Shown: in pieces, positions 3,581 to 43,471 of the stretch
Position numbering within the stretch: position 1 is the first letter of the stretch
How the letters are laid out: each line of letters opens with the position of its first letter
NCBI GenBank assembly: GCA_964523975.1
Contig: CAZGBM010000002.1
Location: forward strand, 1,324-65,323
Direction of reading: 5' to 3'
Source of the DNA: an uncultured bacterium
GTDB taxonomy: Bacteria; Hydrothermota; UBA3072
DNA length: 64,000 nucleotides
The notes under the pieces: model-generated
Told to the model about the DNA's origin: nothing
The model's database searches: none
The model's input: the letters and a program-made list of their open reading frames with translations, nothing else
Position numbers and translations under genes: made by a program

Positions 3581-4701
3581 GCCTCCTTCTTTTTGTATAA
3601 ATTAAGCTTCTCTTCCACATCTTTTAAAGTGGGGTCAAGCTCGATAGCCTTCTCCCAGTTTGAAATAGCTTTATCAATCATTTCCTTCTGTTCATAAGAA
3701 TAACCCAGATTCGCAAAAACAACAGCCTCTCCCTCATTCTTTTTACTTGCTTGTTTGAAGATTTCAATTGCCTCATCAATATTTCCTCTTTCAAACATTA
3801 TGAACCCTAACCCGACTTGCGCCTCAAGCACATCGGGCTTATCCTTTAAGACCTTCTCAAATATCTTCCGTGCATCCGCTTGTTTGCCTTCCTTCGAAAG
3901 GGCAATAGCAAGATTCGTTAATATTTCTACAGAAGAATCCTCCAGAAGCACGGCTTCTTTTAGTTGCCGAATCGCTATTTCTACCCTGCCGCCATAAAAG
4001 TTTTTAACAGCCATGTCATTAAGACGGCGCGCTTCTTCTTTTTTCTTCCCCTTTTCAAATTTTTCTCTCTCTTTCTTAATATCTTCCACATATTTTTCAA
4101 TTGAAACGGACAGCTCTTTCAATCCCTTCGAAGACTCTTTGAACTGTAGATACATTTCCCCAAAAACTTTTTGTAGCGCTTCTCTCAGAGCACTTATTTC
4201 TTCCTTGAATGACCCTTCAAGCTTTTCAAAAACTTCTCCGATATGAGAAATACTACTGCCTAAAATATCCACAGAGTTGTCAACTTTATCTTTCAAAGTC
4301 TTTTGAAGTTCATCAATCTTTTCTGCCATTCTCTCGGGACTGTTTTTAACGCCATCCGAAATTTTATCCATCCCGGATTGAACGACTTCTTTAAAAGAAG
4401 AAAATTCCTTTTCAAGTTTATTGTCCAAATCCTTTGAAAAATTTTCAAGAATCGAAGAAATTTGTTCCAATTTTACGTCAAGCAAAGACCTTAATTCATA
4501 GAGATCGTTATGTTGAGATTTGCTTATATTCCTAAGAACCTCACTTATCTCGGTTCTACGATTAACTATCCCATATGATGAACTCCCTTGCTTTTTTTTC
4601 TCCTGTTCCGGTTTCTTTGTTTCCTGAAATCTGTTCTTTTCATCTATGTGTCTGTCCTTATCCTGTTTTTTCTCCTTCTCCTGCTTCTTTTCTTCCTTCA
4701 T
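3577..4701 (-). CDS. coiled-coil / TPR-repeat protein with K/E-rich N-terminus
   Basis: K/E-rich low-complexity N-terminus and a central coiled coil. TPR repeats at the C-terminus. Last gene-but-one of the operon with the 1185-aa TPR protein. Confidence 0.55.
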   Translation of the reverse strand: MKEEKKQEKEKKQDKDRHIDEKNRFQETKKPEQEKKKQGSSSYGIVNRRTEISEVLRNISKSQHNDLYELRSLLDVKLEQISSILENFSKDLDNKLEKEFSSFKEVVQSGMDKISDGVKNSPERMAEKIDELQKTLKDKVDNSVDILGSSISHIGEVFEKLEGSFKEEISALREALQKVFGEMYLQFKESSKGLKELSVSIEKYVEDIKKEREKFEKGKKKEEARRLNDMAVKNFYGGRVEIAIRQLKEAVLLEDSSVEILTNLAIALSKEGKQADARKIFEKVLKDKPDVLEAQVGLGFIMFERGNIDEAIEIFKQASKKNEGEAVVFANLGYSYEQKEMIDKAISNWEKAIELDPTLKDVEEKLNLYKKKEA

Positions 4702-4707
4702 AAAATA

Positions 4708-7700
4708 TCATCTCCTTATTAGAGGTCTTATTCTCCTATACTTTTCCGTCGCTTCTCGTAACATCACCGAGATATAGGAATTCTTCTTTGCTGGCTCCAT
4801 TTCTGTTTTTGAAAGGAGGCTTAAAGCAAGCTCCGTATTTCCACTATGAAATGCAAGGAGCGCTCTCCTTTCTGCAAAAACATCTTTATTTTCCAATCTT
4901 GAAAGACGCTGATAAGCACCCCAATAATCCTTTGTTTCTTCCTGTATAACACTCAAAAGTATTTGCTCTTTTTCTTTGTCTAATTTCTTGGTTTCCTCAT
5001 AAGCTTTGTCGAACTCTTTTAATTTTAGGTATAAATAAGCTCGTTCCTCCGCAGAATCCGTCATTTTAATTTTATCAAGCAGTACCTGTTTTTTTACTTC
5101 TTCTATTTCTTTAACGCTGACTTTGCTTTTCTTACCGAGAAACCACAGGAGAACCTTTTCTTTACTACCCGGTTCTTTAAGTTTACCCAGATAAAATCCG
5201 GCTTTTTCGAGATTGCCGGAAACAAAGTAAAGATAGGCTCCTTCGGCGACAACGTCTTCTTTATCCGAATTTTTTTCGAGCAATTGTTCATATAAAGGTA
5301 ATTGCTCTTTCGTTTCTATTTTTTTTATATAATTAATTGCCGTATCCCAATCGGAAAGAGCAAGACTGATTCTGACAAGCAAAGGCACCATTTCTACATC
5401 GCCGGGCTCAATAAATTCTTTCAGCTTCTCGGCAACCTCCGGATACTCGTTAAGCAATTCTTCCATTTCGACTTTACTCTTTTGCCTATCTCCTACCTGA
5501 TAACGAATCTTGACAAGTATAATGCGCAGAGGTAAGGGAAGCTTACCGCTGAATAAACTTTCGATTTCCCTCAACAAATATTGTCCTTTTTCCTCGGAAC
5601 CATCGAAGAAGTCTTCTACTATACCAACGAGAGGTGCGTTACGTTCTTCGTTTGCGTATATTTTCAATAATTTTCCGACCAATTCGGTTGACAATTCGAC
5701 TTTAGGAAGTAATCCGTTTATCTCTTTTACTACACTGTCTCTCTTTTCTTCATTCTCCCAATAGGCTTCGATAAAATATTCCAAAGCCTTGTCTACATGA
5801 CCTAAATCTTTCTCGATATCTGCTCTCAAAACAACTATATTTTTTTCGATATTTGGATCTTCAAATTTCTCCAGCGCCTCTACAGCCAAGATTTTTAACT
5901 TTGGGTCAAAACGGATCCCTTTTTCTATCTCTTCAATACCGGAGAGATCTTCCTTATGAAGTTTAACTTTACCGTAAAAAATCCTAAGTGCAGCATGAAT
6001 AGGAGCAATATCGACAAGCTTTTCGCATTCTTCCTGCATAACCTCAACCATAGAAGGCTTTTGCCGAAAAGTCTCGTCCAAACAGGAAACCGCTTTATCA
6101 ATATTACCTGTTTCTCTATATAGTTTATAAAGAGTCATTAGTGTTTCGTATTCTGCACTTCCCTCTTTTTTTATCTCTTCAAGTACTTCGATTGCCTGTT
6201 CCGAAAGAGAATCATCCAGTCCTATCGCCCTTCTTACCAAACCCGCTGCATTTGATAATTTGCCGATTTTTGCATTTGCTCTTGCCAGAGAAAGCATTAA
6301 TTCCGGTTGTTCCTCCAATTCCAAAGATTCTAAAACCTGCGACCCCCATTTAATAGCTTCCTCATAATAATTGTTTTGAATCAAAATTTTAGTAAGTGTT
6401 TTAGAAATAATTTCGTTATCTTTCCTCTTCTTCACTTCACCTATCAAAAAAGAAGTTACTTCGCCTACGTAGTCCGTAAACTCTCTGGCAGCATTTTCTA
6501 TTTCTCTGCAACCCTTTTCGTACTCACCTTTATGGAAATACAAAGCAGAAAGAAGTTTCCGTATTCTCGGTTCATCTCGATACGCCTGCAGATATGTCAA
6601 AATAAATTTAAACCTTTCAGGGTCCTCATCTATAGCTTCTTTATAATATTTTTCCGCTTTATCAAATTCTTCCGCCAACCTGTATAATTCGGCTAAAGCA
6701 AAGGGATATGTAAAAGGCGGGAACTCCTTCCTGTCCAGATTTTTGTAAAATTTAAGAAATTGTTCGGTAAATTCCGGCTTCGATTTTACCCTTTTATCAA
6801 ACTCGGTAAGCATAACAGGTATATAATCGGTTTCCTCTCCAATTATCAAATTGACTTTTTGGGCAATCTCTTCAGGCTTTTCGGGAATCTGAAGCATTAA
6901 AGAAATAATCTCGCCTTCTGTACTTACAGGATTCTCTTTTTTAAATTTTTTGAGTTCTTCTTTTATCTGTTCGGTTTTTTCGGAATCTAAAGACATTTCT
7001 TTGTAAATTTGAAGCGCTGCCTCGGTATCTCCTTCTCTTGAAAGCAATCTTGCCTTTAGTAGTAATCCTGTTGAAGGAAGTTCTTTCCCTTCGAACATCT
7101 GATTTAAATTCTCAAGTATTGTAGTTGATGACGTGGGAGATAGTTCAAAGGCTTTTTCTAAAAGACGAACAACTTCTTCTTTCCATCCAAGGGCGCTATA
7201 AACGCTGGCCATATTAAGAAAATTATCAATCTCTTCCGGAAGCTTTTTTTCAAGTTCTTTAACTTTTTTTCCTATTCCTTCATCTGCAACAAGAGAAACC
7301 GCAGAAAGAAATTCTCTTAGCCCTTCAGAATATCTCTCTTTTTTGATATAAGCTTCAGCTAACTGTTTATGAATTATCGGGTTTCCAGGATCTTTTTTAA
7401 CCATCATCTGATATTTTTTTATTGCATCATCGACCTCAAATTCTTCAATAAGGTTCAGCGCTCTTTCATCTTTTCCTGTTTCTATCAACAACTCGCTCAA
7501 ATAATCAAGAACGTCTTTCGATTCCTTGCTGTAAGGCGATAGAAGAACGATGACTCCATCTTGCAGCTCCGAACTTACCTTCACAGCTTCTCGTAGCTTG
7601 GAAGCTGCTTCAGAATAATGTTTATCCTTAAGCAAAAATTCACCTAAACCTAATTTCAAGTTCGCATCTCCGTAATTTTCTCTTTCTGCTCTTCTTAATT

Positions 7701-8265
7701 CGAGGGTAATATCATGCAGATCTTCAGGCTTTTTTTCCAGTATCTTTTTAAACACCTTCATCGTCTCTTCGCTTCTTCTTCCCTCGTTCATTACGGCAAA
7801 AAGGTAAAGATGGGTAAAGTCCCTCTGGTTAAATTCCGTTTTGTTATCAAGGATATTTTTAACAACCTGCTCTTCTCTATTAATAAAAGCTCCCTTGCTT
7901 TCTTCGCTAAGGTCCCTGAAAAGATCGTAAACTCCCTCGAAATCCATTTTCTCCGCCCATTTCTCCATAAGATATTCGGCCAACCGGTCTGGCTTGCCTC
8001 TCCCGTAAAACAAATCCTCTACTTCTCCAATAACTTTTTTCTTAGCTTCAAGAGAAAGAGCCGCTCCTTTCTCTGCCCAGACAATTACTTCATTTAATTT
8101 ATCTATGGCATGGTATGTGTGCATAATCTCAAGAATGAGTGGAAGATCTGAATTATCCTCTCTTAAAGCATTTTGTAATATCTTAACGGCTTTGAGAGAT
8201 TCTCCTTTCGCTGCTACCCTTCGGGCTTTATCAATTACATTAGAGTGATCACTAAAATTAAACAT
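4708..8265 (-). CDS. large tetratricopeptide (TPR) repeat protein
   Basis: 1185-aa uninterrupted ORF with many TPR-like helical repeats of the (A/G)xxYxxxGxxxxA type. Confidence 0.6.
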   Translation of the reverse strand: MFNFSDHSNVIDKARRVAAKGESLKAVKILQNALREDNSDLPLILEIMHTYHAIDKLNEVIVWAEKGAALSLEAKKKVIGEVEDLFYGRGKPDRLAEYLMEKWAEKMDFEGVYDLFRDLSEESKGAFINREEQVVKNILDNKTEFNQRDFTHLYLFAVMNEGRRSEETMKVFKKILEKKPEDLHDITLELRRAERENYGDANLKLGLGEFLLKDKHYSEAASKLREAVKVSSELQDGVIVLLSPYSKESKDVLDYLSELLIETGKDERALNLIEEFEVDDAIKKYQMMVKKDPGNPIIHKQLAEAYIKKERYSEGLREFLSAVSLVADEGIGKKVKELEKKLPEEIDNFLNMASVYSALGWKEEVVRLLEKAFELSPTSSTTILENLNQMFEGKELPSTGLLLKARLLSREGDTEAALQIYKEMSLDSEKTEQIKEELKKFKKENPVSTEGEIISLMLQIPEKPEEIAQKVNLIIGEETDYIPVMLTEFDKRVKSKPEFTEQFLKFYKNLDRKEFPPFTYPFALAELYRLAEEFDKAEKYYKEAIDEDPERFKFILTYLQAYRDEPRIRKLLSALYFHKGEYEKGCREIENAAREFTDYVGEVTSFLIGEVKKRKDNEIISKTLTKILIQNNYYEEAIKWGSQVLESLELEEQPELMLSLARANAKIGKLSNAAGLVRRAIGLDDSLSEQAIEVLEEIKKEGSAEYETLMTLYKLYRETGNIDKAVSCLDETFRQKPSMVEVMQEECEKLVDIAPIHAALRIFYGKVKLHKEDLSGIEEIEKGIRFDPKLKILAVEALEKFEDPNIEKNIVVLRADIEKDLGHVDKALEYFIEAYWENEEKRDSVVKEINGLLPKVELSTELVGKLLKIYANEERNAPLVGIVEDFFDGSEEKGQYLLREIESLFSGKLPLPLRIILVKIRYQVGDRQKSKVEMEELLNEYPEVAEKLKEFIEPGDVEMVPLLVRISLALSDWDTAINYIKKIETKEQLPLYEQLLEKNSDKEDVVAEGAYLYFVSGNLEKAGFYLGKLKEPGSKEKVLLWFLGKKSKVSVKEIEEVKKQVLLDKIKMTDSAEERAYLYLKLKEFDKAYEETKKLDKEKEQILLSVIQEETKDYWGAYQRLSRLENKDVFAERRALLAFHSGNTELALSLLSKTEMEPAKKNSYISVMLREATEKYRRIRPLIRR

Positions 8266-8938: not shown

Positions 8939-10240
8939 ATGAAAATTTGTGTTATAGGTACCGGATATGTAGGATTGGTGGTTGGAACAGGCCTCTCCGA
9001 GACCGGGAATAAAGTTATCTGTGTAGATAGTGATGAAGAAAAAATACAAAAATTAAAAAACAATATAGTACCAATTTATGAGCCTGGGCTGGAAGAACTA
9101 ATTAAGAGAAATCAAAGAGAATATCGTCTTTCTTTCTCCACATCAGTTAAAGATGCCGTTTCGATTTCGGATATTATTTTTATTGCCGTCGGGACCCCGG
9201 AAAAGGAAGACGGATCTGTAGATTTATCTCATGTATATGCTATTGCCGAAGAAATTGGGGAAGCAATGGGCAGTGAGCATAAAATTATAATTAACAAGAG
9301 TACTGTACCTGTAGGAACAGCGAGAGAAGTCGAGAAAAAAATAAAAAGTAAAACCAAAGCAAGTTTTGACGTTATTTCCAATCCCGAATTTTTAAAAGAG
9401 GGTAGTGCCGTTCAGGATTTTATGAAGCCGGATAGAATTATAATAGGGATGGATAATAAAAAAGTAGCCGAAAAAATAATGGAGCTTTATGAACCTTTCG
9501 TAAGAACCGGAAACCCGATTATTGTTATGGGAATCGAGAGTGCTGAGATGACGAAATATGCAAGTAATACGATGCTCGCAAGCAGAATATCTTTTATGAA
9601 CGAAATAGCAAATCTTTGCGAGAAAGTGGGAGCTGATGTTGAAGAAGTTAGAATAGGTATGGGAAAAGATCCGAGAATCGGGTCAAAATTTCTTTTTCCT
9701 GGAATTGGCTATGGAGGGTCATGTTTCCCTAAAGACGTTAAAGGGTTGGTTCAAAAAGGGAAACAATATGGGCTCCCGATGAAATTCTGTGAAGGCGTAG
9801 ATTTCGTGAACGAATCTCAGAAAAAATTAATCGTAAAAAAAATAAAAGCAAGGTTCAATAAACTGAAAGGGAAAAAAATGGCAATTTGGGGTTTATCTTT
9901 CAAGCCTCAAACTGACGATATGAGAGAGGCCCCTTCTGTTGTTACATTAAACCTTCTTCTTTCCGAGGGAGTTCATATAAGTGCGTATGACCCTCAAGCT
10001 ATGGAAAATGCAAAGGAAATTTTCGGAGACAGAATAAAATACTGTGCTACGCCATACGATTGTTTAAAAGGAGCCGAAGCTCTTATCGTTCTTACAGAGT
10101 GGAATGAGTTTAGAAATCCGGATTTCGAGAAAATCGGCAACCTGATGGCAGGGAAGCTGATATTTGATGGCAGAAACATCTATGACCCTGTCAGGGTAAA
10201 AGATTCGGGATTCGAGTATTACGGAATAGGTAGAGGTTAA
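8939..10240 (+). CDS. ugd: UDP-glucose 6-dehydrogenase
   Basis: N-terminal Rossmann motif VIGTGYVGLV and the catalytic-Cys region GGSCFPKD. Length 433 aa. Confidence 0.88.
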   Translation: MKICVIGTGYVGLVVGTGLSETGNKVICVDSDEEKIQKLKNNIVPIYEPGLEELIKRNQREYRLSFSTSVKDAVSISDIIFIAVGTPEKEDGSVDLSHVYAIAEEIGEAMGSEHKIIINKSTVPVGTAREVEKKIKSKTKASFDVISNPEFLKEGSAVQDFMKPDRIIIGMDNKKVAEKIMELYEPFVRTGNPIIVMGIESAEMTKYASNTMLASRISFMNEIANLCEKVGADVEEVRIGMGKDPRIGSKFLFPGIGYGGSCFPKDVKGLVQKGKQYGLPMKFCEGVDFVNESQKKLIVKKIKARFNKLKGKKMAIWGLSFKPQTDDMREAPSVVTLNLLLSEGVHISAYDPQAMENAKEIFGDRIKYCATPYDCLKGAEALIVLTEWNEFRNPDFEKIGNLMAGKLIFDGRNIYDPVRVKDSGFEYYGIGRG

Positions 10241-12384
10241 CCCTCTTTTTTCCCCGGTTTATTATGGTAGTAGTAATATCCGTAATAATATCCGTAATAT
10301 CCGTATTCTTTATTTATATCAACTTTATTGAGTACGTACCCGAGTGCCTTAATTGAAAGCTGTTTCAGAAGTTCGGAAGTTTGAGCTATTATATGGCGAC
10401 TGGTTTCTCCGTAGGCAGCAACCAGTAATGTTTCTTCGACTTCAGCAGCCAATATTCTACTGTCGCTTACTGTCATTAAAGGCGGAGAATCAAGAAGTAC
10501 TATATCATATTCTGTTTTCCATTTGTTCAGAAGTTCTCTCGCCCTATCCGAGTCCAATAATTCCGAAGGGTTAGGCGGTATTTTACCCGATGGAATGATT
10601 TTTAAGCCGTTTACGACAAACGGCTGTATATCATGTTCTTCATTTATGAGTAACTCGGTAAGACCTTTTTTCATTGTTATTCCCAGATATTTTTCTATTG
10701 CGGGTCTTCTAAGATCAGTATCGACAAGAAGAACATTCTTACCGGAGGACACGAATGAAAAAGCAAGATTGATGGCAATCATTGATTTTCCGGAACCGGC
10801 GTCAGGGCCGGTGATTAAAATCGTAGAAGGGAATCCTCCGACTCTCGATAATTTAATATTAGCGCGGAGGCTTCTAAAGGCTTCTGCAATATGGCTTCTC
10901 GATTCTATTTCTGTAAATACATAGAGGTTTTCCTTGGAATTATTTTTGTCTTTTTTATCGTTTTCAATAAGTGGAATTCTGCCGAGAATGGGTAATCCCG
11001 AGTTTCTGGTAATTTCGAACTCATCTCTGACTGCGGAATCTACATAATCTACGACAAATCCCCCACCTATCCCCAGCAAAACTCCGAGTATAAGAAACAA
11101 TATAATTTTCTTGATTTTGGACATTGTGTTCGGCCCACCTGGAACCCGTGCAACCTCAAGTATCGAGATGTCGCCACTTTCTCCGACTTCCGAGATTTGA
11201 GCCTGCTCTCTTTTTTCGAGGAGCATAAGATATATTTTTGTATTTGCTTCTTTTTCTCTTTCCAACCTGGCGAGTTCCAGTTCTCTCTTTGGTATTCTGT
11301 TAAGTTTAGCCTTGTAATAACGTAAAGCTTCCTCTAAGGCTTCAATTCTGCTCTTGGCGACGGCATAATCGATAGTCAGATTGACGGATTGTTGCATAAA
11401 ATCTTCCATCTGGACTAAAGGGTTAATAGTTCCTTCCTTTTGCAGGAGCTCCCTTGCTACCGTGCCCATTTTTTCTTTTAAAGATTGAATTGAAAAGTCG
11501 ATTTTCTGTAATTTCTGGTCTTCGGGAGCATATCCCTGAATCAACAGATTCGCTTTTTCGTTTTCCAGAGCCGTGAGTTGTTTCTTCAAATCTACAAGTA
11601 CATCGTAAGAGGTTTGCGAAGCTTCCGTAAGTAAATCTCTTTGTTGTTCGTTTAATCTGACTTTTATTGCGGTGAGTTTCTTCTCCAGTACCTCTCCCTC
11701 GATAGATGCTGCTTTCAGCTCCTTTTCTATACCGGACATCTGTTTTATGAATTCGTCTGTCTCGGATGAAATTCCGAGGATTCCATATTTTTCTTTAAAA
11801 TTTTTCAATTTCTCTTCCGATTTCTCTAAGTCTTCCCGGAGATTATCTGTCTGTTCTGCAATGAAGTCATATGTGGAAAGGGCATCTTTTTTCTTGATTT
11901 CGATATCGAAATTTCTGTAAGTTTCGGCAAGCCGATTGGCAAATAACTGACTCATATAGGGGTTTGTCTCCGTAACCTTTATTTCAATGATGCGTGATTC
12001 CCCTTTTGCGCTCACTTCGATTCTTCCGTTTTCTATGTCACCCTTAATGCGAGAAAAAACCATTTCTCTATCTCTGATTTCCATCTGCTCGAGTTCCTTA
12101 TCGGTGAAGCTGTTTGCGGTCTTTTCCAGCGCCGGATGACTTTTAATCAGAGATATATGATTTGCAAGTTCTTCTTCGGTAGGAGATCTGTAATATGTGC
12201 TTGTAAAAAGCGATTCCACTCTTTTAACGAGAATTTTGGAAGAGGACGTGAAGTTGGGAGGAGCATAAAAGAAATAAAAAATTGAGAGAACCAGAGAAAC
12301 CACGATAATGCCTAATACTATTCCTCGTCTTCTTCTGATTATTCTGAAATAATCTTTGATATCAATTTCATACCCCTTATTCAT
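10237..12384 (-). CDS. polysaccharide co-polymerase / BY-kinase (Wzc/EpsB-like tyrosine autokinase)
   Basis: N-terminal TM segment, long periplasmic coiled coil and a second TM. The cytoplasmic P-loop domain carries Walker A (GPDAGSGKS). The C-terminal Tyr cluster reads YGYYGYYYGYYYYH. Confidence 0.8.
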   Translation of the reverse strand: MNKGYEIDIKDYFRIIRRRRGIVLGIIVVSLVLSIFYFFYAPPNFTSSSKILVKRVESLFTSTYYRSPTEEELANHISLIKSHPALEKTANSFTDKELEQMEIRDREMVFSRIKGDIENGRIEVSAKGESRIIEIKVTETNPYMSQLFANRLAETYRNFDIEIKKKDALSTYDFIAEQTDNLREDLEKSEEKLKNFKEKYGILGISSETDEFIKQMSGIEKELKAASIEGEVLEKKLTAIKVRLNEQQRDLLTEASQTSYDVLVDLKKQLTALENEKANLLIQGYAPEDQKLQKIDFSIQSLKEKMGTVARELLQKEGTINPLVQMEDFMQQSVNLTIDYAVAKSRIEALEEALRYYKAKLNRIPKRELELARLEREKEANTKIYLMLLEKREQAQISEVGESGDISILEVARVPGGPNTMSKIKKIILFLILGVLLGIGGGFVVDYVDSAVRDEFEITRNSGLPILGRIPLIENDKKDKNNSKENLYVFTEIESRSHIAEAFRSLRANIKLSRVGGFPSTILITGPDAGSGKSMIAINLAFSFVSSGKNVLLVDTDLRRPAIEKYLGITMKKGLTELLINEEHDIQPFVVNGLKIIPSGKIPPNPSELLDSDRARELLNKWKTEYDIVLLDSPPLMTVSDSRILAAEVEETLLVAAYGETSRHIIAQTSELLKQLSIKALGYVLNKVDINKEYGYYGYYYGYYYYHNKPGKKEG

Positions 12385-21679: not shown

Positions 21680-21712
21680 TCCTTTAGCTGTCAGCGAGAA
21701 TGTCTATCGGAA

Positions 21713-21756
21713 CGATTATGGCAGGAGATAACTTATAGTATCTCCTGCCATAATCG
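21713..21756 (-). other. 18-bp perfect stem / 8-nt loop hairpin between the peptidase gene and the small-protein gene
   Basis: CGATTATGGCAGGAGATA-acttatag-TATCTCCTGCCATAATCG. No U-tract follows on the minus strand. Candidate RNA processing or attenuation element. Confidence 0.5.
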
Positions 21757-21809
21757 ATTTTATCGACCTCTCATAAGTCCCGAATTAATAAGTAAAGGTT
21801 TATCGGAGC

Positions 21810-26381: not shown

Positions 26382-26512
26382 ATGAAAATAATAATTTTCT
26401 ATCTAAATATTGTCAAGGATAAAGATAAAATTTAGTGTATTTTTTGAAAAATTTTTTTATCTTACCTCTTGACATAATATTAATTTTGACAAATAATAAA
26501 CAGTACATTACT

Positions 26513-27856
26513 ATGAAAACGAGAAAGGAAAGCCAGAACGAATTCGACTGGAAGCAAATAAAGAAGGAACTCCAGAAGGAAATTAACGAATCTGCTTTTA
26601 AAGCTTGGTTTGCAAATATGGATTTGGAAGAGTTAAAGGGTGAGGATGTGTATTTTAACATTCCAAACACGTTTACCCAGCACTGGATAAAAGAACATTT
26701 TATGAATAATTTAACCTCTTCAATAAAAGAAGTTACGGGGAAACTTTATAATGTACATTTTCTTGTAAACAAAAAAACAAATTTGGAAACAAATGAACAA
26801 CAAGAAACAGAAGAGGAACAACAGAAAATACAAAAACCTTTTTTACATGATAAATACACTTTCGAGAACTTTGTTGTGGGCGATAATAGTAAGTTCGCCT
26901 ATGCTGCAGCTATGGCTGTCTCCAACGCGCCGGGCAGAGAATATAACCCTCTCTTTATATACGGGGGAGTCGGATTAGGGAAAACACATCTATTACAAGC
27001 AACTGGAAACAGAGTCTACTCTCAATATCCCAATCTTCGTATACTTTACACTCAAACAGAAGAATTTCTTAATGAAATGATAAAGTCTATTCAGGAATAC
27101 TCGACAGTACAATTTAAACGAAAGTACAGAGAAATAGACCTTCTTTTAATTGATGATATCCATTTTCTCTCGGGTAAAGAAAGATTACAGGAAGAGTTCT
27201 TTCACACATTCAACGCTCTCTTTGAAGCAAAAAAGCAAATAGTTATAACTTCCGACAGGCCCCCCAAGGAGATTTCTGGCCTTGAAGAAAGGGTTATTTC
27301 TCGTTTTCACTGGGGTTTAATGGTAGATCTTCAGCCTCCTGATTACGAAACGCGTTTAGCTATTCTGCGTTCTAAAATACAAAGCGATAATATTCAAATC
27401 AGCGACAGTGTAATTAATTATATAGCCTCCAATATAAAAAACAACATTAGAGAATTAGAAGGGTGTTTAATAAAATTATTGGCGCACGCTTCTATATATA
27501 AAACAGATATTACCGTAGAACTCGCCAAAAAAGTTCTAACTGATTTTATTAAAGAAAAAGAAAAAAGAATAACACTTGAAAAAATCATTAAATCTGTTTC
27601 CGAGTTTTATAATATAGATGCAGATGAAATAAAAGGAGGTAAAAGATCCAAAAGCGTCGCTCAAGCTCGTCAGATTGCCATTTACCTTTCAAGACACTTA
27701 ACAAATCTTTCATTAAAAGAAATCGGTAACGGCTTTGGGAAAAGAGACCATTCTACAATTCTACATTCTTTCAACAAAATCGAAAATTTAATGCGGAAAA
27801 ACAATAGGATAAAAGGGGATATTTCAACCATAAAAAGTAAATTGACGGAAACTTAA
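26513..27856 (+). CDS. dnaA: chromosomal replication initiator protein DnaA
   Basis: AAA+ Walker A motif GGVGLGKTHL and domain IV (KRSKSVAQARQIAIYLSRHLT...STILHS). Start taken at MKTRK at 26513; the ORF track's upstream extension is hydrophobic junk. Confidence 0.9.
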   Translation: MKTRKESQNEFDWKQIKKELQKEINESAFKAWFANMDLEELKGEDVYFNIPNTFTQHWIKEHFMNNLTSSIKEVTGKLYNVHFLVNKKTNLETNEQQETEEEQQKIQKPFLHDKYTFENFVVGDNSKFAYAAAMAVSNAPGREYNPLFIYGGVGLGKTHLLQATGNRVYSQYPNLRILYTQTEEFLNEMIKSIQEYSTVQFKRKYREIDLLLIDDIHFLSGKERLQEEFFHTFNALFEAKKQIVITSDRPPKEISGLEERVISRFHWGLMVDLQPPDYETRLAILRSKIQSDNIQISDSVINYIASNIKNNIRELEGCLIKLLAHASIYKTDITVELAKKVLTDFIKEKEKRITLEKIIKSVSEFYNIDADEIKGGKRSKSVAQARQIAIYLSRHLTNLSLKEIGNGFGKRDHSTILHSFNKIENLMRKNNRIKGDISTIKSKLTET

Positions 27857-28021
27857 TGGAAAAATGTTTTATCAACAATTTATCTACATATAAATATGGA
27901 TAAACATATAGAAAGAATCACGAAAATAAATGAAGAAATTAGATTATCCACTTATCTACAATACCTACAATGACTACTAATTTATTATATTATTATAAGT
28001 AATGGTAAGAAAGGAGGAAAA
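27857..28021. promoter_or_regulatory. putative oriC segment: AT-rich dnaA-dnaN intergenic region with 4 DnaA-box-like 9-mers
   Basis: TTATCAACA (27869-27877), TTATCTACA (27880-27888), TTATCCACT (27944-27952) and TTATCTACA (27952-27960). Each is 8/9 to the TTATCCACA consensus. The region is an AT-rich flank. Confidence 0.55.
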
Positions 28022-29101
28022 ATGTTGTTTTCAGTAAATGCCGAAGATTTTATTAAAGAGTTTAAATCTGTAATTCAAATTGTACCTATCCACACAACTT
28101 TTCCTATACTATCTAATGTGCGGATAAAAATAGAAAAAGAAAAAATAAATATTTTTGCAACTGACCTTGATACTTCTTTGATGTATATTATGGATTTATG
28201 TAAAACAGAAAAAATAGGTGTTATTGTGGTTCCTGCGAAAACCCTATTCTCAATAATGGGAGAAATAAAGGGCGAAACGATTTTCCACAGGGAAGAAAAC
28301 AGAGTAAAGATTGAATATAAAAAAGGCTATTTTTACCTACCTTTAATGGAAGAGGAAGATTTTCCTTCCGAGCCCGTAATAACGGAAGACGAGACCTATG
28401 AGTTAAATACGGAAGAGATCAACGAAATTATAGATAAACTTGTTTTTATTGTTCCCGAGGATTCGGCTAAAAGAAAAATGAGTGGAATGCTATGGGATTA
28501 CGAAGATAAAAATCTGCGTCTTGTAGCAACAGATAGTTTTAGTCTTGGTTACAAAGACATTAAGGTCAATCTTGGAAATAAACCTTTTAAAGTGGTGGTT
28601 CCTCCAAAGATTCTAAGACAGTTAGCTACTTTTAACGTCAAGAAAATGAAAATCGGTGTTGATGAAAGCAGAATTTATTTCTTAGGAGATAAATTTACAT
28701 TAGTCTCAAATTTGATAAAAGTCGATTTCCCAAATTATAAGGCTGTAATATCGGAACAAAACGATAACTTTCTTACCCTGGACAGAGAATCTTTTCTTTC
28801 CTCTCTTAGACGGGTCTCTGTTTTTTCGAATGATAGACCCAAAACTATAAATTTGGATTTAGGAGATAACTTAAACATTGAAGTTTTCTCGGAAATAGGA
28901 GAAAGTAAGGAAGAGTTGGAGGGAGAGTATAAAGGTAAAAAAATAAATATAGCTCTTTCTTCCAATTATTTAATTGATTTTTTAAGAAAGATCAAATCTC
29001 CTAAAGTAATTTTAAGTTTTGAAGCCGAAAATAAACCTATTACAATAGAAGGAGAGAAAAAAGAAATATTTTATCTTTTAATGCCTATAACAATAGAATA
29101 A
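28022..29101 (+). CDS. dnaN: DNA polymerase III beta subunit (sliding clamp)
   Basis: 359 aa with three-domain clamp architecture. Lies immediately downstream of dnaA. Confidence 0.88.
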   Translation: MLFSVNAEDFIKEFKSVIQIVPIHTTFPILSNVRIKIEKEKINIFATDLDTSLMYIMDLCKTEKIGVIVVPAKTLFSIMGEIKGETIFHREENRVKIEYKKGYFYLPLMEEEDFPSEPVITEDETYELNTEEINEIIDKLVFIVPEDSAKRKMSGMLWDYEDKNLRLVATDSFSLGYKDIKVNLGNKPFKVVVPPKILRQLATFNVKKMKIGVDESRIYFLGDKFTLVSNLIKVDFPNYKAVISEQNDNFLTLDRESFLSSLRRVSVFSNDRPKTINLDLGDNLNIEVFSEIGESKEELEGEYKGKKINIALSSNYLIDFLRKIKSPKVILSFEAENKPITIEGEKKEIFYLLMPITIE

Positions 29102-34035: not shown

Positions 34036-34725
34036 GTGATCAAGTCTTTTTTAGGCAGCAGCATAATAGAGTACCCCGGTAAAATCTCATCAGTAGTTTT
34101 TATAGGTGGATGTAATTTGAGATGCCCTTTTTGTTATAATCCCGATCTAGTTTTACCTGAACTTGTAGAGAAACTGTCTGATATTTCTGAAGATGAAGTT
34201 ATAAAAAAACTGAAAGAAAGAAAAGGGTTTATCGACGGAGTATCTTTTACGGGAGGAGAACCACTTCTTGCACCTGGACTTATGTCTTTTCTTAAAAGAG
34301 TTAAAGACGAGATAGGAATTAAAGTAAAAATCGATACGAATGGAACTTTACCCGACAGATTGAAAACTGCGCTGCCTTTTATTGATTATATATCGATGGA
34401 TATAAAATCTTCGCCGGAGAAATATCCTGTTGCTACCGGAAATAATACAGAATTTAAAAAAGTGGAAGAAAGTATTGAAATAATAAAAGGTATTGAAAAT
34501 TATGAATTCAGAACTACAATGGTGCCCGGTATTGTGGATAAGGATGATATTAAAAAAATATGTGAAAAGATTGGTCCCGTGAGAAAATATGTACTTCAGG
34601 GTTTTAAAAACAGAAAAACTCTTTCTCCGGAATTTTCGGGAAAATCACCTTACCTAAAGAAATATTTGAAAGAAGCTTCTCTGGATTTAAAAGAGTGTGC
34701 CGGTATAGTCGAGATTCGAGAATAA
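34036..34725 (+). CDS. nrdG: anaerobic ribonucleotide reductase activating protein (radical SAM)
   Basis: Radical-SAM cluster motif GGCNLRCPFCYN. Sits downstream of nrdD. Confidence 0.85.
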   Translation: MIKSFLGSSIIEYPGKISSVVFIGGCNLRCPFCYNPDLVLPELVEKLSDISEDEVIKKLKERKGFIDGVSFTGGEPLLAPGLMSFLKRVKDEIGIKVKIDTNGTLPDRLKTALPFIDYISMDIKSSPEKYPVATGNNTEFKKVEESIEIIKGIENYEFRTTMVPGIVDKDDIKKICEKIGPVRKYVLQGFKNRKTLSPEFSGKSPYLKKYLKEASLDLKECAGIVEIRE

Positions 34726-34745
34726 ATATCGTACCCTATCGCTCG

Positions 34746-34792
34746 CCCCGTGGAATAGAAGAAACTACCTGATGAACTCCTATTCCACGGGG
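34746..34792 (+). terminator. 13-bp perfect hairpin downstream of nrdG (possible terminator/structured element)
   Basis: CCCCGTGGAATAG - 21 nt - CTATTCCACGGGG. No clean T-tract follows. Confidence 0.35.
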
Positions 34793-34872
34793 CAAGCAAA
34801 GCCGCTAAAAAGTAAAGATCAAATATCAAAATGTAAAATTACAGATCAAAATTCAAAAATGAATAAAAAAGA

Positions 34873-39994: not shown

Positions 39995-40339
39995 TTATAT
40001 ATTTTTTCTTATCTCTTCCAGAGATTTTTTCGCATGGGGAGCCATATCGAAGAATTTGTTAAGTTTTTCGCAAATATAATCTTCACAATAAGCGCAATTT
40101 TTAACAGTTTTCTCTATTGCGCAGGCTCTTATTTCACAAATTCCGCAATAGCCTATATGCCTGCCATTTTTTGACAGACATGCATCGCAGTTTATATCTT
40201 CATTTTTAAAGTCATGTTTAAATTCTTTAGACCACTGCTTTGCGGTTTTCTCTCTCTCGACATCATCGTCATTTTGTGTTGCAATAAAGGCCGGGCAATC
40301 GCTGCATACTAGGCCACAAAAAGCAATTATTTTATCCAT
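39995..40339 (-). CDS. cysteine-rich protein (DUF3795-like)
   Basis: 114 aa with 12 Cys arranged in CxxC pairs. Confidence 0.45.
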   Translation of the reverse strand: MDKIIAFCGLVCSDCPAFIATQNDDDVEREKTAKQWSKEFKHDFKNEDINCDACLSKNGRHIGYCGICEIRACAIEKTVKNCAYCEDYICEKLNKFFDMAPHAKKSLEEIRKNI

Positions 40340-40382: not shown

Positions 40383-40406
40383 GTAATGTTTCACGTGAAA
40401 CATTAC
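40383..40406. promoter_or_regulatory. 24-bp perfect palindrome GTAATGTTTCACGTGAAACATTAC at 3' end of rsmG
   Basis: Perfect dyad with core AATGTTTCACGTGAAACATT, overlapping the rsmG stop codon. A second copy lies at 40951-40970. Confidence 0.5.
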
Positions 40407-40969
40407 CACTCCAGAATTGAAACGATGTTGTTTTTTAGATTTAGTTCGTTTTTGAGGGTGAGTTTGTCTCCGGTGTACTTGCCGTAATATAGAATTCTAT
40501 GACCAGTACCTTTCGGTATTTTGTCCGGATTCAGAGCTCGAACCAGAACCCAATCGTAAGATTCTTCAATATCTTCGGCATTTCGAACGAATTTTTGTAT
40601 GATTTTTATATTTAAATTCAGTAACGATGCGATATACTCGAGGAAAATCACGGGCTTGTGTTTTGATTCTGCCAGGTGGAGTATTATACCGGGCTTGAAA
40701 ATTTTTAAAGGAATTCCTGCGATTCCCCCTCCTGCTCCGAAATCAAGTATTTTTTCGTCGTCTTTGATCATTTCGTAAGGGATAAGAGAGGGCAAAAGAA
40801 GCTTTTTTAAAACATCCTCTTTTTTTAGTTTTCGTGAGATAAGATTTATTTTTTTGTTCCATAGAATAAGTTCTTCGAGATATAATAAAAGCTTATCAAT
40901 TTTTCCGTTGGTTGTTTCTATGTTAAGTTCTTTTAAAGATTCCTCAAGAAAATGTTTCACGTGAAACAT
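40403..40969 (-). CDS. rsmG: 16S rRNA (guanine527-N7)-methyltransferase RsmG/GidB
   Basis: SAM-binding motif LDFGAGGGIAGIPL. Length 188 aa. Confidence 0.85.
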   Translation of the reverse strand: MFHVKHFLEESLKELNIETTNGKIDKLLLYLEELILWNKKINLISRKLKKEDVLKKLLLPSLIPYEMIKDDEKILDFGAGGGIAGIPLKIFKPGIILHLAESKHKPVIFLEYIASLLNLNIKIIQKFVRNAEDIEESYDWVLVRALNPDKIPKGTGHRILYYGKYTGDKLTLKNELNLKNNIVSILEW

Positions 40970-40970
40970 T
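40951..40970. promoter_or_regulatory. 20-bp perfect palindrome AATGTTTCACGTGAAACATT overlapping rsmG start codon
   Basis: Identical core to the palindrome at 40385-40404. Overlaps the stop codon of the upstream 127-aa gene and encodes MFHVKH of RsmG. Confidence 0.5.
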
Positions 40971-41352
40971 AATAGTATATTTTGAAAGAAAGCGTGGTTT
41001 TGACAGAACCCATTTGATCAAGAGAGAGATCGCTTTCGAAATTGTAAAGCTGTGCGTCTACATAGGCGTCTAAAATACCTAAGGTCCAGACCAATGCCAT
41101 CCACCAGCCAATTTGCCCTCTTTGATTAAGGAGATTTTGTTTTTCTTCTGGTAATGCGCTGATATCTCTTTCTATTTCGTTTAATCTAATTTGTGTCTGT
41201 ACTTCTTTGTATAAAAGATAAGACTGGGCACCTCCTATTATAATGCCCTTGACGTATCTCTCGGTGTAAAATTGCCCGCCACCCGGGACAAACGTTGTAA
41301 GCAACATTGCTGTTTTCGCAGATTTTGCAAGCAATAAAAATATATAAATCAT
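40969..41352 (-). CDS. hypothetical membrane protein
   Basis: 127-aa ORF between mutS2 and rsmG, co-oriented with both. No recognisable domain. Confidence 0.4.
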   Translation of the reverse strand: MIYIFLLLAKSAKTAMLLTTFVPGGGQFYTERYVKGIIIGGAQSYLLYKEVQTQIRLNEIERDISALPEEKQNLLNQRGQIGWWMALVWTLGILDAYVDAQLYNFESDLSLDQMGSVKTTLSFKIYY

Positions 41353-41353
41353 T

Positions 41354-43471
41354 TCATTTAAGAACGGCTATGGTAACGCCTTCTCCTCCTTCAAAGTGTG
41401 GTGGAGTTTCTATGCCTTTTACCCTTCTGTCCTTTTTTAGTTTTTCGCAAAGCATATTGCGTAATATCCAGCTCCCTTTTCCGTGAAGTATTCTTACTGA
41501 ATTATAATTCGCAAGGATTGCTTTGTCAAGAAATTTGTCGGTAGCTTCCCAGGCATCTTCTTTTGTCATTCCGCGGACTGAAATTTCTAACGGAACGTCC
41601 ATATCTACATTATAGTTGATTCTCGATGGTTTTGGTGAGTGTTTGAGGGACTTCACGCCGTTTTTTTTCTCTTTAGGGGAGGCGCCGGCGAAGGCTTTTT
41701 TGTATTTTGTTATTGATTCTTTGGAAGCTTTTGACTCTTTTATTTCTTTTATGGTTTTTTCGACTGTTGCGCGTGCCCCGGTTAATATATCCGATGCTTT
41801 TTCTTTTGCTTCCTTGAGAATTTTTTTCTCTTCTTCTTTGACATTTTTTATTTTTTTGTCGTATTCTTTCTTTAATTCGGAAAACTCTCTTTTAAGGTTA
41901 AGTATTTCTTGTTCTTGTTCTCGCAACTTTTTGTTTCTTAGAGAAAGTTCTTCTATTAAATTTTCAACCTCAAAAATTTCAGAGTCTACGAAATTTTTTG
42001 CCTCGTCGATAATTTGTTGCGGCAGACCGAACTTCTCGGCAGTTGCTATCGCTTTTGAACCTCCGGGGATTCCGATTTGTAAATGATAGGTCGGGCCGTT
42101 TTCATATTCCATCGCGCCGTTAATCATCCCTTCTTGTTCTTCAACATAAAATTTCAATGGGCTTAGATGGGTTGCTGCAATAACAAGGCTTTCTTTGGAT
42201 TTTAATGTGTTAAGCAAAGCAATCGAGAGAGCGCTTCCCTCAACCGGATCTGTATTGCCTCCGAGTTCGTCCAGCAGTATAAGGTTTTTATCATCTGCCT
42301 CGCTCAGAATTTTTTTAAGTCTAACGATGTATGATGAAAAAGAAGATAGGTTTTCTTCCATTGACTGCTCGTCTTCTATGATCCCTGATATGTTTGTAAA
42401 AGAGCCGATTTTTGTTCCTTCTTTTGCCGGGATAGGGATTCCGGCTAACGAGGACAGGACATTTATACCCACATTTTTAAGCAGTACGGTTTTTCCGCCT
42501 GCGTTTGGACCGCTGATAAGCAGAATTCTCTCATTTGTTCCGAGTTCCAGGTCGATAGGTTCGACATTTTCTTTTTCTCCGAGCAAAAGAGGATGGTAGC
42601 ATTCTTTTAATATTAAATCGCTGCCTTCCGTGAATTCGGGGATGATACATTTGAATTCCTCAGCGTACTTGTTTCTCGACTTGAGCGAGTCTATCTTTAT
42701 CAATATACTGGTGTTTTTGTCGATAGAAGGGAAGTTTTCCTTTATTTCTCCGGTTAGATATTGTAAAATTCTTTTCTTTTCTATATCTATATCTTTTTCC
42801 AACTCCGCAACTCTGTTGTTAAGCGTGACTATTGCGCTTGGTTCTATGAAAGCCGTATTCTGAGTACGGGAAAGGTCCACCATTATTCCTTCTATTTCGT
42901 CTTTTCTCTCGTATTTAACAAGCAGAACTGTTCTACCCAGGCGGGTTGTTATAATTTTATCCTGTAGGAGATTTTCTTTTTCTTTTAATAATTCATTGAG
43001 TTTTTTTTCGATTTTATCGGTAGCGGACGACTTTTCGTTGTAAAGGGATTTTAACAAAGGAGTAGAGGATGGTTTGACAACCCCTGTTTCGTCTATGTAT
43101 CTGTTTATTTCTTCCCTGAGAGGCAAAATAGGATTAAGGGCACCGGCTAATTCTTCAAGTGTTTTGTTGTCTCTGAGAACATTTTTGACTTCTTCGGATA
43201 AATCCAATAATTTTCTATAATAAAGGAGTTCTTCTCCTGATAATATTTCCCCTCTTTCCGGGGCTCTTTCTCTTTTTAAAATATGTAGACCGGGAATGAG
43301 ATGTATGATTTGTTTGCTTTCCGCAAGTTGCTTAAAGGCAAGCAGCCTGTCTTGTTTCGAAATATTTGGCGTTAAGCTTAAAACTGCGGCTCTGCCGGGG
43401 TCCGATTCGGCGTACACGGAGATCTTTTCCAGAAGTACATTTAATCCTATCATGTTTGATAGGGCTTTCAT
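41354..43471 (-). CDS. mutS2: endonuclease MutS2
   Basis: MutS ATPase Walker A motif ISGPNAGGKT, a long coiled coil and a C-terminal Smr domain. Confidence 0.85.
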   Translation of the reverse strand: MKALSNMIGLNVLLEKISVYAESDPGRAAVLSLTPNISKQDRLLAFKQLAESKQIIHLIPGLHILKRERAPERGEILSGEELLYYRKLLDLSEEVKNVLRDNKTLEELAGALNPILPLREEINRYIDETGVVKPSSTPLLKSLYNEKSSATDKIEKKLNELLKEKENLLQDKIITTRLGRTVLLVKYERKDEIEGIMVDLSRTQNTAFIEPSAIVTLNNRVAELEKDIDIEKKRILQYLTGEIKENFPSIDKNTSILIKIDSLKSRNKYAEEFKCIIPEFTEGSDLILKECYHPLLLGEKENVEPIDLELGTNERILLISGPNAGGKTVLLKNVGINVLSSLAGIPIPAKEGTKIGSFTNISGIIEDEQSMEENLSSFSSYIVRLKKILSEADDKNLILLDELGGNTDPVEGSALSIALLNTLKSKESLVIAATHLSPLKFYVEEQEGMINGAMEYENGPTYHLQIGIPGGSKAIATAEKFGLPQQIIDEAKNFVDSEIFEVENLIEELSLRNKKLREQEQEILNLKREFSELKKEYDKKIKNVKEEEKKILKEAKEKASDILTGARATVEKTIKEIKESKASKESITKYKKAFAGASPKEKKNGVKSLKHSPKPSRINYNVDMDVPLEISVRGMTKEDAWEATDKFLDKAILANYNSVRILHGKGSWILRNMLCEKLKKDRRVKGIETPPHFEGGEGVTIAVLK

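Follow-up and report, generated by a model that had tools for sequence, protein, structure and literature searches.

Identical palindromes bracketing rsmG in an uncultured bacterium are very probably chromosomal parS sites

The rsmG gene of an uncultured bacterium begins and ends in the same long palindrome, and we asked what these two copies are. They lie in a stretch of 64,000 nucleotides that we refer to as the window. The initial annotation, which had described them, offered three readings: a pair of operators for a dimeric transcription factor, with CACGTG as the core; a pair of sites for recombination or inversion; or a pair of RNA hairpins. A pattern search of the 64-kb window found exact matches to the 20-mer AATGTTTCACGTGAAACATT at 40385-40404 and 40951-40970, and no third copy with up to three mismatches. 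None of 100 dinucleotide-preserving shuffles contained a match, which agrees with the earlier view that the pair is not random. The copy at the rsmG stop codon widens to a perfect palindrome of 24 bp, GTAATGTTTCACGTGAAACATTAC (40383-40406), while that at the start codon is a palindrome of 20 bp (40951-40970). No perfect palindrome of the window is longer than these two, and the next in length has 16 bp. Both the sequence and the pattern search therefore bear out the 24-bp palindrome and the identical 20-bp core as first described; the distance between them, given as 567 bp, was corrected to 566 bp from start to start.

The overlap with rsmG is intimate at both ends. The TAA stop codon (40405-40403) shares two bases with the downstream copy. 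The ATG (40969-40967) lies inside the upstream copy, where it overlaps the TAA stop of the preceding DUF5683 gene in the arrangement TAATG. This copy supplies the first six codons of rsmG (ATG TTT CAC GTG AAA CAT), so that the palindrome encodes the peptide MFHVKH, as had been noted; that the same peptide is read from either strand follows trivially from the palindromy.

ParB (Spo0J), a protein of chromosome partitioning, nucleates on DNA at a centromere-like site named parS. The inner 16 bp of both copies are TGTTTCACGTGAAACA, which matches the parS consensus at 16 of 16 positions. [quoted passage not shown] Among the matches listed, the literature that contains the 16-mer is almost all work on ParB and parS or on origin regions. 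Judged by their sequence, the two palindromes are thus very probably chromosomal parS sites, the nucleation sites of a ParABS partition system. The support that was observed or computed consists of identity to the consensus, a location near the origin, and purifying selection confined to the 16-19-bp core.

This assignment preserves one part of the first reading and sets aside the other. What we predict is indeed a functional site for a dimeric DNA-binding protein, but it does not look like the operator of a CACGTG-type regulon, because the 64-kb window holds only two copies (allowing up to three mismatches), and both CACGTG and the half-sites occur in it at or below chance frequency. Neither copy lies at a predicted promoter.

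We also compared the pair with known sites of the ParB family. The 16 bp are identical to TGTTNCACGTGAAACA, the idealised consensus of the B. subtilis Spo0J/ParB sites. Like chromosomal parS of that type, the sites in the window are palindromic, present in more than one copy and located within about 13 kb of oriC; further likenesses are that they lie partly within coding sequence and are conserved across relatives. They differ from known chromosomal parS in that the cognate parAB is neither adjacent nor seen on this contig, and binding here is predicted; otherwise they are alike. The Noc binding site of Firmicutes (NBS, TATTTCCCGGGAAATA) is also a 16-bp palindrome with a ParB-family reader and the same half-site architecture, and NBS are dispersed over the chromosome but kept out of its terminus. 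The two positions per half-site that determine specificity differ, however, and at these the sites in the window match parS. The Noc binding site was accordingly rejected as a candidate.

The palindromes sit in a string of genes on one strand, cvpA-mutS2-DUF5683-rsmG-DUF3795, and the coordinates of the features that bear on their identity are collected in Table 1. The RsmG protein is short and divergent: although it clears the Pfam GidB threshold by a wide margin, its match to NCBIfam TIGR00138 scored 85.5 bits, below the cut-off of 99.5, with residues 28-149 alone aligned, and its residues 7-188 had only 3 matches at E<=1e-30 among 1.8 billion representatives. The same window contains a likely origin of replication. 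It holds 29 DnaA-box-like 9-mers where 15.8 are expected, and the five that lie in the spacer between dnaA and dnaN are each one mismatch from TTATCCACA. Both the minimum of the cumulative GC skew and a dip in GC content fall at 26-30 kb, the skew minimum itself at 26-28 kb. The parS pair is therefore origin-proximal, at 12.4 and 13.0 kb from the DnaA-box cluster between dnaA and dnaN, a distance that one expects of parS. Two more DnaA-box-like 9-mers were seen just within dnaN, at 28086 and 28119.

Table 1. Coordinates of the predicted parS sites and of neighbouring and origin-related features in the window
Feature	Position	Strand	Remarks
Predicted parS site 1 (5' site)	40953..40968	.	Exact consensus 16-mer TGTTTCACGTGAAACA; invariant in four lineages; covers the start codon and the next five codons of rsmG; adjoins the DUF5683 stop codon
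Predicted parS site 2 (3' site)	40387..40402	.	Exact consensus 16-mer; invariant in four lineages; begins directly past the rsmG stop, within the 63-bp spacer preceding the DUF3795 gene
rsmG (gidB), 16S rRNA m7G527 methyltransferase, 188 aa	40403..40969	-	Pfam GidB 99.3 bits, 2e-28
DUF5683 gene	40969..41352	-	Its stop codon runs into the rsmG start (TAATG), bordering parS site 1
DUF3795 gene	39995..40339	-	Downstream of parS site 2, same strand
dnaA, replication initiator	26435..27856	+	Three Pfam DnaA domains; TIGR00362 556 bits
DnaA-box cluster, likely oriC	27869..27960	.	Five DnaA-box-like 9-mers within 92 bp
dnaN, DNA polymerase III beta clamp	28022..29101	+	High-scoring Pfam and NCBIfam matches

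Several other elements of the window were recorded along the way. A perfect sigma-70 consensus (TTGACA-17 nt-TATAAT, 12/12) is found on the minus strand at 41501-41529, where it falls inside mutS2 at its 3' end, about 150 bp ahead of DUF5683 and rsmG and about 550 bp upstream of the 5' parS; it may be an internal promoter of DUF5683 and rsmG. An inverted repeat at 21702-21767, with 29-nt arms that are 83% complementary and an 8-nt spacer, sits in a non-coding gap of 576 bp between the end of one ORF (21234) and the start of the next (21810). Another, rich in G+C (34741-34797; 21-nt arms, 90% complementary, 15-nt spacer), lies directly 3' of a radical-SAM (NrdG-like) gene at 34036-34725 and is probably the transcription terminator or an attenuator of an nrdD-nrdG unit. 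No tRNA genes, and no Rfam families at the gathering threshold, were found across these 64 kb of origin-proximal chromosome.

To see which part of the palindromes is conserved, we turned to other assemblies. Three independent assemblies of the same organism (L001-L003) hold both sites. Three diverged relatives, L004 and L005 (67-69% RsmG identity) together with L090 (nucleotide identity about 74.5%), have retained the two 16-mers, each in its place. When the window was aligned with L004, L005 and L090 in three-way and four-way comparisons, the two 16-mers were identical at 16/16 positions in every pair, while the DNA of the rsmG body was 69-71% identical across the lineages. Third codon positions were 34% invariant outside the site and 6/6 invariant inside it, and the 40 columns past the 3' site were 25-56% identical. 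The invariant blocks of the four-way alignment are ATGTTTCACGTGAAACATT and ATGTTTCACGTGAAACAT. Their immediate flanks vary: the TAA stop changes to TGA, and the spacing past the rsmG stop differs. The conserved unit is thus a core of 16-19 bp, ATGTTTCACGTGAAACAT(T), and the extensions to 20 and 24 bp are peculiar to this organism. Because the core blocks are invariant while the flanks differ, selection acts on the parS core and not on the extensions. The initial annotation would have been contradicted by a palindrome that occurs only here, with no conservation in relatives; since the sites of rsmG orthologs in four lineages are 100% identical over both 16-mers, with diverged flanks, this is not the case.

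Invariance without covariation is the signature expected of a protein-binding DNA site, and it also bears on the proposal that the two copies act as RNA hairpins, one terminating or stabilising the transcript where rsmG ends and the other controlling translation over the start codon. Each copy can form a stem of 8-10 bp with an ACGU-type loop, and their placement, one over the start codon and the other past the stop codon, would suit such roles. However, neither copy coincides with a terminator-like site or is followed by a U-run, folding is weakly better than that of shuffled sequences (z-scores of -1.4 to -2.4), and the window has no Rfam match. Moreover, the sequence is invariant rather than covarying across relatives and phyla, and equals a known protein-binding DNA site. 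We consider a function as RNA hairpins exceedingly improbable.

Gene order in the same assemblies speaks to the remaining suggestion, that the copies are the ends of a recombining or mobile segment, either as sites for inversion or excision of rsmG or as the terminal repeats of an inserted element. The geometry is suggestive, as a 566-bp segment is bracketed by two identical 21-bp sequences. Yet no recombinase, invertase or transposase is present among the neighbouring genes, and rsmG is a housekeeping gene whose synteny (cvpA-mutS2-DUF5683-rsmG) is kept in L004, L005 and L090. The segment has the same orientation in all the independent assemblies (L001-L003), and the six assemblies and relatives are colinear. 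A search of metagenome contigs for the inverted or excised junction ...ACTATTAATGTTTCACGTGAAACATTAC... gave 0 matches, although it had almost no power, since a control scan of the same collection brought up none of this organism's contigs. Altogether, a recombination site pair has hardly any probability here.

In most bacteria, rsmG lies directly upstream of parA-parB, and parS sites are found in or around rsmG. We looked at this gene in other genomes. In a sample of distant loci retrieved with the peptide pattern MFHVKHFL, 76 of 78 carry 1-8 exact or near-exact 16-mers within a few kb of rsmG, and in 68 of the 78 an ORF with the ParB signature GERRxRA is nearby, usually just 3' of rsmG; these counts show that the arrangement exists and not how frequent it is, because the pattern back-translates to parS and so biases the sample. 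As an estimate of frequency the tally was rejected and replaced by a search that leaves out the first six residues. For this, 1.8 billion representatives were searched by HMMER with RsmG residues 7-188, and the best 150 matches were assessed. An MFHVKH start was present in 5 of these 150 (including four of the six closest), a start of MFHVE[HQ], which derives from a one-mismatch variant of parS, in 5 more, and VSRET, which is parS in another frame, within the first ten residues of 3. In total, 13 of the best 150 RsmG representatives (about 9%) carry an N-terminal peptide encoded by parS. A literature search for the term 'MFHVKH' did not find it.

In five unrelated metagenome contigs that contain the 20-mer (L088, L091, L094, L097 and L102), parA-parB adjoin the site and match their HMMs at E-values between 1e-103 and 1e-132. 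The Cytophagia MAG contig L008 has one parS between mnmE and mnmG (4016-4031) and a second at 6002-6017, translated in both frames where mnmG and rsmG overlap: MnmG ends in ...NVSRET, and RsmG starts with MFHVKH. No parAB was found within 6 kb on either side in L008.

Separately, some contigs of very low GC content (23-28%) were found to carry dense arrays of 6-9 exact parS 16-mers, spaced by about 82-155 bp within about 0.9 kb (L092:3286-4142, L096:1252-2190 and L101:6726-7667; also L093 and L100). The array in L092 fills a non-coding gap of 1.1 kb between gyrA and tadA-dnaX-ybaB-recR. Such an array is an unusually tight parS cluster. Neither ParA nor ParB was found inside the fetched stretches of the array contigs.

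A described parallel comes from mycobacteria. In M. tuberculosis the same perfect palindrome occurs twice, at distances of about 1.1 and 2 kb upstream of parB, and in related mycobacteria one palindrome is located upstream of gidB (= rsmG) or in its 5' end (PMC2346475). The mycobacterial gidB-parA-parB region (PMC2346475, citing Lin and Grossman) shares with the window the presence of TGTTTCACGTGAAACA at two sites near gidB. There, gidB-parA-parB form one cluster and a parS overlaps a gidB promoter, whereas here the vicinity lacks parAB and the 5' site falls where two genes are translationally coupled.

We searched for the cognate proteins in the window, whose source contig has 67.8 kb, and in the contigs of relatives. 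Signature motifs and profile HMMs made from ORFs of the fetched loci detected neither parB nor parA in the 64-kb window, and ParB was likewise absent by motif or profile HMM from L084 and the relatives' contigs; the best E-value of the ParB profile, which was built from 90 ParB/Noc ORFs, was 0.97. The 6.4 kb beyond the left end of the window contain hypothetical genes, DXS and an ABC transporter, and no ParB or ParA; on the right, the protein next to the terminal one led to a contig of just 2 kb. Two candidates within the window were rejected: the sole ParA-like match, at 10237-12384, is the P-loop of a Wzz/BY-kinase (Wzz/tyrosine-kinase), and a possible SMC, an ORF of 1185 aa at 4708-8265, is a TPR protein.

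ParABS is missing from about a quarter of bacterial species. This genome could then be one that has no ParB, and the sites could be orphans, left over from a lost ParABS or belonging to another protein. The roughly 25% of species that do without the system, together with the lack of ParB and ParA in flanks of 40 kb and 23 kb and in the relatives' contigs, speak for such a view. A relic would decay, however, and here two 16-mers, one of them intergenic, are perfectly kept in four lineages in which neutral positions are saturated. In L008, too, parS is at rsmG and the 6 kb to either side lack parAB, so that parAB and rsmG lie apart in one more lineage. We regard relic sites, or another reader in a genome devoid of ParB, as very unlikely. 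Instead, we infer that ParB is present in this genome and binds here, since the perfect conservation of two separate 16-mers, one intergenic, is not what a relic would show.

A more far-reaching interpretation takes the separation itself as the finding: the pair is uncoupled from parAB (none for at least 40 kb in one direction and 23 kb in the other) and yet keeps its place at the initial codons and the stop codon of rsmG in four or more diverged lineages. This would mean a new reader of parS, should the complete genomes prove to have no canonical ParB; alternatively, the embedding could be an ancient one, across phyla, that couples ParB occupancy to the expression of a ribosome-modification gene. 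We think this unlikely.

A related proposal keeps ParB as the reader and makes the pair mainly an operator, at which ParB, either bound at the two ends or spread over the DNA between them, would regulate transcription of DUF5683-rsmG(-DUF3795) as a repressor or roadblock rather than mark a centromere. The sites coincide exactly with the two ends of a single gene. In mycobacteria, a parS overlaps the -10 hexamer of a gidB promoter, and competition between ParB and RNA polymerase has been proposed (PMC2346475); effects of ParB on transcription close to parS have also been reported for Vibrio and Pseudomonas. But the 5' site of the window lies within an operon, at a coupled TAATG junction and not at a promoter, the sole strong promoter-like site being at 41529-41501. 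Positions of parS around rsmG also vary in other lineages, and such variation suits a centromere that tolerates different positions more than it suits an operator. Moreover, regulation would add to the role as a centromere and not replace it. We judge a primarily regulatory pair to be quite unlikely, while a local regulatory side-effect of ParB on rsmG, beside the centromere role, is possible.

If the palindromes act as parS, their function would follow from what is known of the family. A ParB dimer would read the two half-sites, TGTTTCAC|GTGAAACA, through its helix-turn-helix domains; bound at parS, it would bind CTP, close as a clamp and slide to adjacent DNA (reviewed in PMC7333895). Sliding would build a large nucleoprotein complex near the origin, which ParA would move to the daughter cells and which would also load SMC condensin (reviewed in PMC7333895). 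Two parS sites 566 bp apart would then offer two neighbouring loading points. The bracketing of rsmG is probably a matter of historical position, in that parAB is no longer adjacent in this lineage while the sites stayed at the start and stop of rsmG. The MFHVKH N-terminus of RsmG is nothing other than parS read as codons.

The parS pair is an ordinary, already well described feature, at the classical rsmG position in the origin region. It is slightly unusual in that parS stays at rsmG although parAB is not nearby. Arrangements of parS at rsmG of these kinds are already known, and the finding opens no new question. Its practical value is for annotation: in this uncultured bacterium, the parS pair marks the origin-proximal partition locus. 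More widely, parS explains why RsmG and neighbouring products begin or end with MFHVKH, VSRET or NVSRET in many genomes, and parS is the first reading to try for identical palindromes beside rsmG, ahead of anything more exotic.
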